Part shown: piece by piece, positions 1-62,870 of the stretch
How positions within the stretch are numbered: position 1 is the stretch's first letter
How the letters are laid out: the number at the start of each line of letters is the position of its first letter
Source: a virus
Taxonomy: Duplodnaviria; Caudoviricetes
Length of the DNA: 64,000 nt
Direction: 5' to 3' (one strand)
IMG/VR virus record: IMGVR_UViG_3300020577_002599
Span: 1,841-65,840 of that record
Translations under genes and position numbers: made by a program
The notes under the pieces: generated by a model
Told to the model about the DNA's origin: nothing
The model's database searches: none
The model's input: the letters and a program-made list of their open reading frames with translations, nothing else

Positions 1-165
1 AGGAAAAATATTTTATTATTAACTACAATATTACATCACAAAAAGTATTTACTATTTAAAAAATATTTATTAATTTTGAAAAACAAATAAAGGTGCTTAT
101 CGCTGTTGGGCTTTTCTCAGCAGTATCAGGAATAAGTTAAATGTGAGTTCGTCAAGCCTTTAAAA

Positions 166-310
166 TCCAGAGTGGCGGAACTGGGATTCTGAAATACTGC
201 TAGTCGTTAAAGTAGGAATAACCCATTGGTAGACGCAGGGAAACAGCGACGTGTAGTGTATAATCGAAGTCGAGACACCCTTTTTACAGGTTCGAATCCT
301 GTCTCTGGAA
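166..310 (+). ncRNA. tRNA-like RNA with D-loop insertion and aberrant anticodon arm
   Basis: Perfect 7-bp acceptor stem TCCAGAG(166-172)/CTCTGGA(303-309); T arm ACAGG-TTCGAAT-CCTGT (286-302); D arm GCGGAA...TGGTAGACGC interrupted by a ~44-nt hairpin (182-225); no 7-nt anticodon loop. Confidence 0.7.
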
Positions 311-597
311 CATAGTAGAGTAAGACTGTAAAACGCTTTCAAACCCTGAAATCGAGGACTCCGTAATGGTCGTTTCACTACACTTGTTTTACTCGGTGAT
401 CTCATAATGAAGTGTAAATTGCGGTATGGGTGACTGCTACGAAAGTGTAGTTTTTTTATTATATCCAACAACAGGAACAAGGGTTAATAGTACTTTACAC
501 AAACGAGTAACCCTGAAAGACCCGTAGGTTCAGCTCTTAGGTGTAATTTAGTTGTTGGGTATTTTTAATGTATCTAGTATTGAATATAAATATTTTG

Positions 598-605
598 TAT
601 CTTTG
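598..605 (+). promoter_or_regulatory. Bacteroidota sigma70-type -7 promoter box for the replication operon
   Basis: TATCTTTG matches the TAnnTTTG consensus, upstream of a structured leader and ORF 760. Confidence 0.7.
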
Positions 606-609
606 CGGA

Positions 610-740
610 GTTGATTCGAGGTGAGAGACGAATTGACCAGGAAAATTAAATAACTTATTTTTTGTATAAAAGTCTTAGCAGACTTGGTATCTCTCACACA
701 CCGAAAGGTGTTCTACCAATCTGTTAGGACTTTTTTTATT
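610..740 (+). ncRNA. Two-hairpin leader with complementary loops ending in a terminator-like U tract
   Basis: Hairpin 1 GTTGATTCG/CGAATTGAC with loop AGGTGAGAGA; hairpin 2 arms 670-689/714-732 (G.U pairs) with TCTCTCAC in the loop; T run 731-737. Confidence 0.6.
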
Positions 741-759
741 AACTTAAAATAAGAAAAGT

Positions 760-945
760 ATGAAAAAAATTGGAAGTTTAGAAGTAGTAAAATACAACTT
801 CGAATTTATTGATGGAAATCCTAAAATTGTTATATCAATGATAAAGGTTTTGGACGAAGATGGTAAATATATTAAGTTTGCCAAGCTAGAAAATATATTA
901 CCTTATTTAAGTAAATACCCAATAGAATTTAAAAATATAGAGTAA
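760..945 (+). CDS. Hypothetical protein (61 aa)
   Basis: ATG ORF preceded by an A-rich start region, abutting the next gene. Confidence 0.6.
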   Translation: MKKIGSLEVVKYNFEFIDGNPKIVISMIKVLDEDGKYIKFAKLENILPYLSKYPIEFKNIE

Positions 946-1895
946 TGACAGGTTGGATAAAAATTCATAGAGAAATAAATAATCATTGGATATGGAATAA
1001 TAGCGATTACCTTAAATGGTGGTTAGATATTCTTATAGAAGCTAATTATTCTGAAGGTGATGTACTGATAAAAGGAACTGTTTTAAAGTGTGGAAGAGGT
1101 GAAAAATTATATTCTATAGAGACGTGGTCTAAGAGATGGAATACCAATAAAAGTAAAGCGAATAGGTTTCTTAAATTGTTAGAAAAGGGGAAAATGATTG
1201 TGCTGAAAAACGAAACGCATACTACACGTCTAACTATCTGTAAATACGATGATTACCAAGACAAAGAAACTGAAAGTGAAACGCAAGTGAAACGCAAACG
1301 AAACGCAAGTGAAACGCAAGTGAAATCAATAAAAGAAGAAAAAGAATATAAAGAAATAAATAACTCTATTGTGGTTTCTTCAAAACCAAATAAAAAGATT
1401 CTTTTATCTGATGTTGATATTAATACCCTTAGTGAACAAGACCGAATATATTTCAAAATAGCTATTGGTTTTAGAGATTTATTTATCAATAATAAAAAGG
1501 CTTTAGGTGTCAATGATTTTAAAGACCAAGAGAATGCGACTTACAAAGGTTATGTAGACCCAATAAGATTGGCTTTCACAGAAGATAAAAAAACAGAGGA
1601 AGATTTCAGAAAGGTATATGCTTTTTTAATGAATGATGAATTCTGGATGAAGAATATAATGTCTACATCTAAGTTAAGAGAAAAAATGTCTGATTTACTT
1701 ATAAGATCATCTTCTATTCCGACTAAGAAACAAGTTTTACCTAAAGATTTTTGGAGAAGAGAACTTACAGATGAACAGAAGAAACTTTTATCTCCAGAGA
1801 ATTTAAAACACTGGGAGAGACAGAAATCTGCAATGCAATTAGAAGGAGGTAGATTACTTCCTGTTAAAATAATTTACGAAGGAGATGAGCAATAA
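945..1895 (+). CDS. Phage replication initiator (lambda O / replisome-organizer-like)
   Basis: N-terminal MTGWIKIHREI..HWIW motif typical of phage initiators; internal iteron repeats; upstream of helicase. Confidence 0.75.
   Translation: MTGWIKIHREINNHWIWNNSDYLKWWLDILIEANYSEGDVLIKGTVLKCGRGEKLYSIETWSKRWNTNKSKANRFLKLLEKGKMIVLKNETHTTRLTICKYDDYQDKETESETQVKRKRNASETQVKSIKEEKEYKEINNSIVVSSKPNKKILLSDVDINTLSEQDRIYFKIAIGFRDLFINNKKALGVNDFKDQENATYKGYVDPIRLAFTEDKKTEEDFRKVYAFLMNDEFWMKNIMSTSKLREKMSDLLIRSSSIPTKKQVLPKDFWRRELTDEQKKLLSPENLKHWERQKSAMQLEGGRLLPVKIIYEGDEQ
1275..1329 (+). repeat. Five tandem 11-bp iterons (AGTGAAACGCA), candidate replication origin
   Basis: Exact units at 1275, 1286, 1308; variants at 1297 and 1319; followed by an A-rich tract at 1330-1365. 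Confidence 0.7.
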
Positions 1896-3744
1896 AAAAA
1901 ATAATCAAATGAAAGTAGCAGTATTTAATAACATAAACGATACATCTGAACCAAGATATGCTGAAGTTTCAAAAATACTTGATTCTATAAAAAATGGTTT
2001 CTTTAAAGATAAAATTGAAGCAATACGAAATGAGAACGACAAAGGAACTCAGAGTAGATTAAAGTCATCTCTTACTTCTATTCTTTTTTCTTCTTCAAAG
2101 CAAGATGGTATTAATTCAGGCAGAAACAACAAGGTTTCATGGAGGACAGACAAAGGTGTCGTAGAGCATAGCGGTCTTATCTGTCTTGACTTAGATAAGT
2201 TTGAAGATGAGTTTGAAATAATATCTGTAAAAGAGGATTTAAAAAAAGACCCTTACGTTTACTCTGTCTTTGTCTCTCCGTCAGGAGAAGGTCTTAAAGT
2301 ATTGGTTAAGATACCAAAAGATATTCAAAACCACAGGAAGTATTTCTATGGACTAAAGAATCATTTTAACTCTCCAAACTTTGATGACTCTTGTGTAAAT
2401 GAGGCTAGAGTTTGTTATGTATCTCACGATGAAGATATATATGTGAACGAAAACTCTAAAGTTTTTACTGATATTGTTGATACAAAAGTACCATCAGTTG
2501 AGGTAAAAGAAACAAAAGTACAAGTTAAAGTAGAGAATGACAGAGTTATTGATGGTCTTTATAAGTGGTGGAATGAAAGGTATGGTCTTGTAGAAGGAGA
2601 AAGAAATAGGAATACTTATATACTTGCTATGGCTTTCAATGAGTTTGGAATACCTGAATTACAAGCTAAGTCGTTTATGTCTCAGTTTGAACACACAGGT
2701 TTTGAGATTCAAGAGATAAATTCTTGTATAGAGAGTGCATACAACAAATCACATCTTTTTGGAACTAAATCTTTTACTGATGATGAAGAGATTTTTAAAG
2801 AGTACTTACCTAATGATGTAGCACCAAAGCAAGTAATTTCAGTTAATCTTGAAAATATATACAAGGCTTCATTTGTAGATGTTACAAAGAAAATTGAATA
2901 TCCTCCAGTAGCTGTTTCAATTGGAACTCATAAACTTGGTAACAAGGATTTTCCAATACCATTTGGTACTTATGGAAATTTTAGTTGTATTGTAGGTCCA
3001 TCAAAGTCAAAGAAAACTTTCTTAAAATCATTAATTACTGCTGCATATATTGGAGGTAAAACATCTAACTATACATCTTCAATAAAGAGTCACAGAGATA
3101 GAGAGTGTTTTATAATTGACATAGACACGGAACAGAGTTCGTGGCACGCACAGAATGTATTTAAGAGGGTTACTAAATTGGTAGGTGTTGACAACTATGA
3201 GTTTTACAAGCCTTTTGCTTTAAGACCATACGAACCAAAAGAAAGACTTCAGTTTATTGAGTGGTTGATTTATGAAAGCGAAATGAAAGATAATATTGGT
3301 CTTGTGGCTATAGATGGTTTGGCAGATTTAGTTAATGATTTCAACGACTTAAAAGAAAGTCAAGCTGTAATTCAGAAGGTAATGAAGTTTACCGATGATA
3401 AGCAATTTCATCTTACAACAATCCTTCACTCTAACTTTGGAACTAATAAAGCAGTAGGACATATAGGTTCTTCAATGTTAAAGAAAGCAGAAACAGTTTG
3501 TCAGGTTGGTCCTGAAGGAGATGCTATTAAAGCTCACTTTAGTCACACAAGAGGTTTTCCAATTGAAGACTTTTACTACTCTGTAAATTCAGATGGTCTT
3601 CCATATATCCTTAACGAAGAAGTTAGACTAATAAAAGTTGATGAAAAGAAAGAACCTGTTGATAGTGGAATTATTTTGCCAACACCTACTCCAAACCAAG
3701 CATTTGACTTAAGAGACGAAATAGATAACCAAATACCTTTTTAA
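1885..3744 (+). CDS. Primase-helicase (BT4734/VirE-N-like, PriCT-1-like and AAA_25/RecA-type helicase domains)
   Basis: HSGLICLDLD..VFVSPSGEGLKV N-domain; EGERNRN..LA PriCT motif; Walker A-like GPSKSKKT, IDIDTEQ, Walker B VAIDGLADL. Confidence 0.8.
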   Translation: MSNKKNNQMKVAVFNNINDTSEPRYAEVSKILDSIKNGFFKDKIEAIRNENDKGTQSRLKSSLTSILFSSSKQDGINSGRNNKVSWRTDKGVVEHSGLICLDLDKFEDEFEIISVKEDLKKDPYVYSVFVSPSGEGLKVLVKIPKDIQNHRKYFYGLKNHFNSPNFDDSCVNEARVCYVSHDEDIYVNENSKVFTDIVDTKVPSVEVKETKVQVKVENDRVIDGLYKWWNERYGLVEGERNRNTYILAMAFNEFGIPELQAKSFMSQFEHTGFEIQEINSCIESAYNKSHLFGTKSFTDDEEIFKEYLPNDVAPKQVISVNLENIYKASFVDVTKKIEYPPVAVSIGTHKLGNKDFPIPFGTYGNFSCIVGPSKSKKTFLKSLITAAYIGGKTSNYTSSIKSHRDRECFIIDIDTEQSSWHAQNVFKRVTKLVGVDNYEFYKPFALRPYEPKERLQFIEWLIYESEMKDNIGLVAIDGLADLVNDFNDLKESQAVIQKVMKFTDDKQFHLTTILHSNFGTNKAVGHIGSSMLKKAETVCQVGPEGDAIKAHFSHTRGFPIEDFYYSVNSDGLPYILNEEVRLIKVDEKKEPVDSGIILPTPTPNQAFDLRDEIDNQIPF

Positions 3745-62808: not shown

Positions 62809-62870
62809 CAAAAGGAGTTAGTCGAAAATCCTATAAAGAGTAGACATAATTAAATTTAATTAAATTAAGT

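Follow-up and report, generated by a model that had tools for sequence, protein, structure and literature searches.

A phage RNA gene with the body of tRNA-Leu and no anticodon, and its viral relatives

Non-decoding RNAs built on a tRNA body

Phage T4 encodes, within its tRNA cluster, two small RNAs of 119-139 nt, RNAC and RNAD (species 1 and 2 RNAs), the roles of which are still unexplained (PMC3014915). YrlA (RF02553), a tRNA-like Y RNA of bacteria, does not decode and mimics the tRNA elbow with its D and T arms (PMC4201824). In the engineered tRNA scaffolds of Ponchon and Dardel, the acceptor, T, and D arms are kept and the anticodon stem-loop serves as the insertion site, and in E. coli the resulting chimeras undergo exact processing and are shielded from decay (PMC3753655). 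The tRNA-like domain of tmRNA consists of an acceptor stem and a T arm, with a large insertion between them and no anticodon. In tRNA punctuation, which operates in animal mitochondria and on the tRNA-linked small RNAs of murine gammaherpesvirus 68, marks for RNase P and RNase Z free the neighboring RNAs. We know of no description of tRNA punctuation for phages or for a Leu-type chassis without an anticodon.

Here we analyze a stretch of 64,000 bases (the window) from a complete virus genome of 65,840 bases with direct terminal repeats. The original prediction placed at 166-310 a tRNA-shaped RNA with perfect acceptor and T arms, an insert in the D loop, an irregular 43-nt arm in place of the anticodon arm, and no encoded CCA, and direct reading bears out each of these elements. 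The features are as follows.

166-310 (+), the whole tRNA-Leu-shaped, anticodon-less RNA gene, a full-length match to covariance model R1
166-172 (+), 5' strand of the acceptor stem, TCCAGAG, pairing with 303-309; all seven pairs covary across the family
173-180 (+), U8 and G9 (173-174), the 5' strand of the D stem, GCGG (175-178), and A14 and A15 (179-180), identical to bacterial tRNA-Leu
181-225 (+), D-loop insert of 45 nt between positions 15 and 16, closed by TGGG/CCCA
226-237 (+), remainder of the D loop, UUGGUAGA, with G18, G19, and A20a, then the 3' strand of the D stem, CGC, and A26, identical to bacterial tRNA-Leu
238-280 (+), irregular arm of 43 nt replacing the anticodon arm, with no 5-bp stem carrying a 7-nt loop and no U33
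281-285 (+), linker TTTTT of 5 nt, the last base of which, U48 (285), is the Levitt partner of A15
286-302 (+), T arm, ACAGG-TTCGAAT-CCTGT, with 286-290 pairing with 298-302 and a loop, TTCGAAT, of the TTCRANY type; four of the five pairs covary in the family
303-310 (+), 3' strand of the acceptor stem (303-309) and discriminator A73 (A310)

The acceptor stem (TCCAGAG at 166-172, CTCTGGA at 303-309) is made of seven Watson-Crick pairs, pair 1-72 being U-A and pair 3-70 C-G, and A310 is directly followed by CAT, so that CCA is not encoded. The D arm, TGGCGGAA and TTGGTAGACGCA with 45 nt between them, resumes after the insert with TTGGTAGA (226-233), CGC (234-236), and A26 (237). Its sequence had been called class II-like, and this holds to the letter: once the insert is taken out, the arm is exactly that of true bacterial tRNA-Leu genes (TGGCGGAAYTGGTAGACGCA), and the insert thus falls cleanly in the variable part of the Leu-type D loop. 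The 43-nt arm is closed by GGG/CCC, contains CGAC (247-250) opposite GTCG (269-272), and has an 18-nt loop (251-268). Since the RNA has no anticodon, it is unable to read codons. ARAGORN, run over the window, reported neither a tRNA nor a tmRNA, and Rfam gave no tRNA match at 166-310 even when E values up to 10 were allowed; these standard annotation programs overlook the gene altogether.

The RNA shares with bacterial class II tRNA-Leu the D arm (minus the insert), A15-U48, G18 and G19, the T arm, a 7-bp acceptor stem, and A73, whereas it has no anticodon arm, only the 5-nt linker 281-285 where the long variable arm would precede the T stem, a 45-nt arm in the D loop, and a U-A instead of a G-C pair at 1-72. 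The engineered scaffolds are man-made, have one insertion site, and use tRNA-Lys3 or tRNA-Met bodies; the RNA at 166-310, in contrast, is natural, is built on a tRNA-Leu body, and offers another insertion site within the D loop. The resemblance to YrlA does not extend to the Rfam score at 166-310, 14.8 bits against a threshold of 69, and the phage genome encodes no Ro60 (TROVE) domain. Moreover, the ends of YrlA lie in its Ro60-binding stem and not at an acceptor. As for tmRNA, none was called by ARAGORN or Rfam, G3-U70 and a tag reading frame are absent, and the full D arm is kept; in addition, the pseudoknotted RNA that lies inside the insertion of tmRNA is located outside the tRNA-like part in the window, in the trailer described below.

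A family of tRNA-Leu chassis RNAs in viral contigs

Viral contigs were scanned for a split D arm with a gap of 35-62 nt. Among the 74 matches, which include locus L019, 29 also possess a T loop and, correctly spaced, fully paired T (5 bp) and acceptor (7 bp) stems; the other 45 have no tRNA features and look like chance hits. Shuffled loci yielded no chassis units. The D-insert subfamily comprises 26 distinct members including that of the window, all with a hairpin of 35-59 nt at the identical point, and their acceptor stems differ widely yet pair in every one. Across 24 aligned relatives, 7/7 acceptor pairs and 4/5 T-stem pairs are changed on both sides. Because these sequences were picked for perfect pairing, the figure of 100% paired holds by construction, and it is the diversity of the pairs that counts. 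The T that precedes the T stem, at the position of U48, was not demanded by the search and is nevertheless present in all 24 (and in 115 of the 135 units of an independent set). The discriminator varies in this subfamily (A in 16, G in 7, C in 3, and T in 2).

The independent set comes from a second scan, for which the T arm and a single widespread 3' strand of the acceptor were the sole anchors and which was blind to A15-U48. It returned at least 135 distinct units of 69-182 nt in at least 120 viral contigs, with up to 6 units per locus. A14, A15, and U48 occur jointly in 103 of the 135, four units show a switch to G15-C48, and a D-loop insert is rare (3/135, about 2%).

A covariance model, R1, was built from 54 relatives with the window excluded. 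Its alignment with 166-310 covers the full length of the model (positions 1-120 of 120) at 63.8 bits and an E of 9e-15, well outside what chance would give, and this is its sole match in the complete 65.8-kb genome. R1 also gives 50-60 bits to bacterial tRNA-Leu, 35 bits to T4 tRNA-Leu, and 27 bits to T4 RNAC; the scoring of true tRNA-Leu genes indicates that the chassis is a tRNA-Leu body. T4 RNAC resembles the family in its acceptor-like closing stem, its canonical T arm, and the long hairpins that stand for the other arms, but its 27 bits come mostly from the T arm, it has no Leu-type D arm, its acceptor contains mismatches, and no common descent is detectable.

Among the matches listed, the distribution of the family appears almost wholly viral. 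One true member was found among the 120 bacterial-genome pattern matches listed, and three others of these 120 are duplicated tRNA-Leu 5' pieces, as at integration sites. The common, AGTCAGG-type chassis is absent from 50,697 cultured phage records at the sensitivity of blastn. Closer relatives, sought with the pattern of the T arm plus CATAGTAG, were limited to L019 in viral contigs and, in metagenomes, to two unrelated normal tRNAs. The family loci share no neighboring proteins beyond those of close relatives, and no defense, anti-defense, or tRNA-related gene is a shared neighbor. A search of the literature found no description of an anticodon-less tRNA-Leu chassis family. Judged from its sequence, the RNA at 166-310 belongs to a large, apparently almost wholly viral family of non-decoding tRNA-Leu-shaped RNAs.

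These data bear on the reading that 166-310 has no function as an RNA, being instead a tRNA-Leu pseudogene in decay, a scar of recombination, or what is left of an attachment site. Remnants of this sort exist, as the three duplicated 5' fragments at bacterial integration sites illustrate. At 166-310, however, 12/12 stem pairs are perfect and all the bases engaged in tertiary contacts are kept, the R1 match is full length, the gene is present in a single copy in a complete genome with terminal repeats, and the homologs display compensatory changes and not random decay. We regard a relic as very improbable. The chassis is under selection, and the identity originally proposed, that of a tRNA mimic, stands in the form of a selected, non-decoding tRNA-Leu look-alike.

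Hardly credible to us is the proposal of a true tRNA-Leu gene interrupted by two introns and spliced to a decoding tRNA. It would explain why the removal of 181-225 restores the tRNA-Leu D arm exactly, but no deletion within 238-285 produces a 5-bp stem, a 7-nt loop, U33, and a Leu anticodon, and likewise in nearly all relatives. ARAGORN labels 32 of the second-scan units as tRNAs, and these calls, with malformed arms, scatter over unrelated anticodons, which also argues against splicing. Furthermore, the inserts have no common sequence or boundary motif, 45 nt is far under the size of group I introns, and the phage has no RNA ligase gene.

A few family loci deserve mention on their own account. 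A unit found at L070:6146-6270 and in L172, a Fibrobacter succinogenes metagenome-assembled genome, combines a Leu-type chassis and a 35-nt D-loop insert with a regular 5-bp/7-nt arm, the anticodon GUA (Tyr), and a long variable arm; it may decode, as a tRNA that has gained an arm in its D loop, and among the matches listed no other member was seen in a bacterial assembly. Of 131 chassis units, 8 (in L290, L308, L316, L317, L344, L347, L361, and L369) have, exactly 5-6 nt upstream, TGAC followed by a hairpin of the form NNNN-GAAAGA-NNNN, which was not found in shuffles. In L334, another family-bearing contig, about 25 tRNA genes and a tmRNA gene adjoin the chassis RNA.

The two inserted regions behave differently from the chassis. 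The domain at the place of the anticodon arm ranges from 30 to 144 nt in the relatives and is of unrelated sequence, and the inserts differ almost wholly even between members with a common chassis; members that do have a common insert show compensatory changes within it (e.g., GCGTG...TACGC versus GTGTG...TACAC). D-loop inserts fold as hairpins across the family (mean z of -2.46, compared with -0.88 for that of the window), and the anticodon-replacing domain is less regular, often forming two hairpins (mean z of -0.84, compared with +0.22 in the window). When the whole fold was constrained, the window gave a z of +0.16 against a family mean of -2.25, its inserts being the least structured in the family. 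The original prediction had spoken of inserted stems; the TGGG/CCCA and GGG/CCC closures are indeed present, but the word overstates the weak folding of the two inserts. Plain folding of 166-310 did not recover the cloverleaf and was no better than that of shuffles (z of -0.51). The case for the RNA rests on its relatives and not on folding energy.

Such a contrast between a conserved chassis and hypervariable inserts of 30-144 nt suggests that the inserts might be the working part, as aptamers, sponges, or protein-binding arms directed at a host or phage factor, with the tRNA body as an expression scaffold. The hairpin folding of the D-loop inserts, the compensatory changes inside common inserts, and a design like that of the engineered scaffold (PMC3753655) all speak for this reading. 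A role as cargo carrier fits the family well but the window member poorly, since the window inserts are the least structured and have no look-alike among 160 other units, and their complementarity to the genome does not exceed chance. We consider cargo rather unlikely as the explanation of this gene. An antisense role was rejected: the longest exact complement in the phage genome is 11 nt, and shuffles give 10-14 nt. The window inserts could pair with one another over the D stem (-22.3 kcal/mol, equaled by 5.5% of shuffles), but this pairing is marginal and was dismissed as a family trait, the mean z of the family being near 0. When 22 family loci and 3 related slot loci were compared with known RNA families, tRNA and tmRNA were the only matches, and none of the inserts was recognized.

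The leader, the slot, and the trailer

Within window positions 1-800, short stretches match 68 records of cultured Flavobacterium phages (vB_FspP_elemo) at 84% identity. The host of these phages is Flavobacterium sp. BAL314, the one record inspected is assigned to Elemovirus, and the gene order is common to the window and the elemo phages. No credible protein gene is present in window 1-760; an antisense ORF at 160-480 (106 aa, TTG start) has no match in PHROG and was taken as non-coding. The gene at 166-310 is flanked on both sides by structured RNAs.

86-165 (+), conserved 5' leader RNA of about 75 nt, with a closing stem, a long hairpin, and a short hairpin
311-457 (+), pseudoknotted 3' trailer RNA of about 145 nt, defined by a sequence profile and covariation
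319-326 with 386-393, trailer P1 (pseudoknot)
337-351, trailer P2
361-367 with 418-424, trailer P4
379-385 with 410-416, trailer P3
401-407, trailer loop CUCAUAA
437-450, hairpin at the end of the trailer, followed by U7 (451-457)
945-1895, DnaD-like replication initiator, 3' of the non-coding stretch
1885-3744, primase/helicase

Ahead of the leader, TAATTTTG at 71-78 (+) fits TAnnTTTG, which we take to be the Bacteroidota -7 promoter motif and for which the sigma-70 scan is not made; a motif of the same type, TATATTTG, is found at the equivalent place in the Flavobacterium phage L001. The leader is conserved at 81-86% identity in 8 viral loci, with a consensus fold containing 5 covarying pairs, and it precedes the slot in the window and in 7 of 10 related loci. 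It has no match in Rfam. The leader also fronts protein genes in unrelated viral contigs (L040:6925-7010, L035:510-595, L028:1320-1404, and L005:6254-6330) and looks like an independent 5' element.

The trailer is recognized by its profile in 10 related loci (E of 1e-33 to 1e-37). Its fold has five helices, a pseudoknot among them. In this fold, 87% of cells are paired (64% in shuffles), and both partners have changed in 19 of 31 pairs, a covariation drawn from six sequences of which four are clearly distinct. It begins exactly 1 nt past the discriminator of the tRNA-shaped gene in 10/10 loci, whatever the occupant, although these loci come from related phages and are not independent observations. 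The terminal hairpin with U7 was not accepted by a simple terminator scan. The trailer could be a processed small RNA or a self-cleaving element. A candidate interaction between GTGTAGTG (251-258) in the 18-nt loop and CACTACAC (377-384) in the trailer, for which L019 has a similar match, was dropped because L243 has an L019-type trailer with a different occupant and because the trailer segment sits in the covarying helix P3. Two further observations concern the trailer: its loop CUCAUAA (401-407) equals the anticodon loop of tRNA-Met(CAU), and a hairpin of the GAAAGA type with U7 also closes it (431-450).

The leader, the tRNA-shaped RNA, and the trailer together form a unit of about 380 nt, the central slot of which accepts different occupants. 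Besides the RNA of the window, the slot holds a relative of 177 nt in L019 and L247; in L244-246, a relative of 118 nt without a D-loop insert, upstream of tRNA-Met; in the cultured elemo phages, a normal tRNA-Met alone (as annotated, for the matches listed among the 68 records); and, in L243, L248, and L250, a 76-nt tRNA-shaped RNA in which the anticodon arm consists of 8 bp under a GCAA tetraloop. This GNRA-capped RNA (L243:3061-3136, L248:3149-3224) falls below the Rfam tRNA threshold and is mislabeled tRNA-Ala(GGC) by ARAGORN. It has no cargo and occurs in the closest relatives of the window, and the use of a cargo-free unit by sister phages is a further argument against the inserts being the working part. 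The tRNA top half is the sole thing that the five occupants have in common. Most family members, in other phages, are found without this leader and trailer.

Several observations in and around these loci are recorded here. L244:2688-2790, between the chassis RNA and tRNA-Met, is a further small unit that lacks a D arm, has a T arm and is closed by a stem of 7 bp, and scores 27 bits with R1. L247 and L250 both lie on contig IMGVR_UViG_3300046002_004363 (99.6 kb), where the replication module occurs twice with different occupants; either the assembly is chimeric, or two related phages have been joined. In the window, the stretch just past the trailer (475-558) contains an extended inverted repeat (CCAACAAC ... 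GTTGTTGG) and then a T run, and is not seen in elemo phages. At 562-627, ahead of the replication genes, stand a second TAnnTTTG promoter-like site and a leader hairpin, with 86% identity to elemo phages. Far away, at 62812-62846, a DUF805b RNA motif (RF02914) scores 37.1 bits against a threshold of 35.6. A match to ARRPOF was dismissed (16.3 bits against 127).

Proposed processing and possible roles of the RNA

The reading that we favor, tentatively and at slightly less than an even chance, is that of a working, non-decoding gene derived from tRNA-Leu, whose RNA is excised by host RNase P and RNase Z and whose tRNA top half does the work. Transcription of the + strand would produce the RNA as the middle part of the leader/tRNA-shaped RNA/trailer unit. 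Host RNase P would cut at the 5' end and RNase Z after A310, CCA would then be added, and a stable tRNA-like RNA of about 145-148 nt would be released; the same cuts would generate the 3' terminus of the leader and the 5' terminus of the trailer. Such an RNA would keep the upper tRNA body, with the acceptor stem, the T arm, the D stem, the D-loop/T-loop elbow, and the U8-A14 and A15-U48 contacts, and would have exchanged the anticodon and variable arms for the 43-nt arm and gained a second, 45-nt arm in the D loop. At this locus, the top half would be a handle for processing and stability, and both inserted arms would be passengers. The phage genome contains no gene for a CCA-adding enzyme, RNA ligase, Leu/Phe-transferase, Ro60, or reverse transcriptase, and the phage must therefore rely on host tRNA enzymes.

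The exact trailer junction, the interchangeable occupants, and the behavior of the engineered tRNA scaffolds support this processing model, and the fact that both flanks of the slot are real structured RNAs also counts in its favor. The original prediction had raised a signal for RNase P and RNase Z that matures neighboring RNAs. This idea is indirectly supported by the fixed arrangement, with the trailer junction invariant in 10/10 loci and the leader present in the window and 7 others, which cleavage by the two enzymes would turn into a tRNA punctuation. However, since most members occur without the leader and trailer, punctuation cannot be the purpose of the whole family. Also, if the top half alone mattered, the inserts would be expected to shrink; elsewhere in the family they persist, fold well, and covary, which points to functional cargo, although those of the window do not surpass shuffles in folding. 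Finally, the 45-nt arm next to G18-G19 may disturb the recognition of the elbow by RNase P.

Another possibility is that the RNA acts as a mimic of the tRNA-Leu top half on proteins that bind tRNA-Leu, either as a substrate or sponge of LeuRS or as an uncleavable competitor of a tRNA-directed defense enzyme. The competitor would be bound via the elbow and the acceptor and would offer no anticodon loop for cutting. As far as can be read from the letters, all the leucine-identity essentials of E. coli are present, namely A73, A15-U48, G18 and G19, A20a, and U8-A14 (PMC9976931), and in E. coli leucylation persists in variants that lack the anticodon arm as well as the variable arm (PMC9976931). 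The single true member among the 120 bacterial matches listed, the fast turnover of occupants between close relatives, as in an arms race, and the arrays of up to 6 units in which some members occur are compatible with a mimic or decoy. Against both forms of this reading, the discriminator varies in the D-insert subfamily, G73 works against LeuRS (PMC9976931), and the D-loop insert, which may hinder charging, alters the spacing from A15 to G18 G19, itself part of leucine identity. Furthermore, no defense, anti-defense, or tRNA-related gene is a shared neighbor, and the slot elsewhere takes an ordinary tRNA-Met or a chassis of another type than Leu. Altogether, we find this possibility rather unlikely.

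A bolder version, which we put forward as a speculation with a small chance of being right, is that the family is an RNA weapon of phages, in which the top half of tRNA-Leu, uncuttable and of no use for decoding, captures tRNA-directed host enzymes and swappable inserts tune the target. If this were true, the captured enzymes would be defense nucleases, transferases, or LeuRS, and the window variant would be a two-armed version, the arms of which may pair together.

The second insertion site in the D loop is new in the window, as is the leader/slot/trailer context that it has in common with cultured phages. T4 RNAC and RNAD pose a comparable puzzle. The tRNA-Met found in the same slot of the cultured elemo phages (host BAL314) provides a laboratory system for occupant swaps and for studies of processing and fitness. 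The genes for tRNAs in phages are usually viewed as serving codon usage or as replacing tRNAs cut by the host, and neither view fits a widespread and apparently almost wholly viral family that keeps the features by which tRNA-Leu is handled and discards the anticodon. The members of this family must act on the tRNA-handling machinery or ride it as a vehicle.
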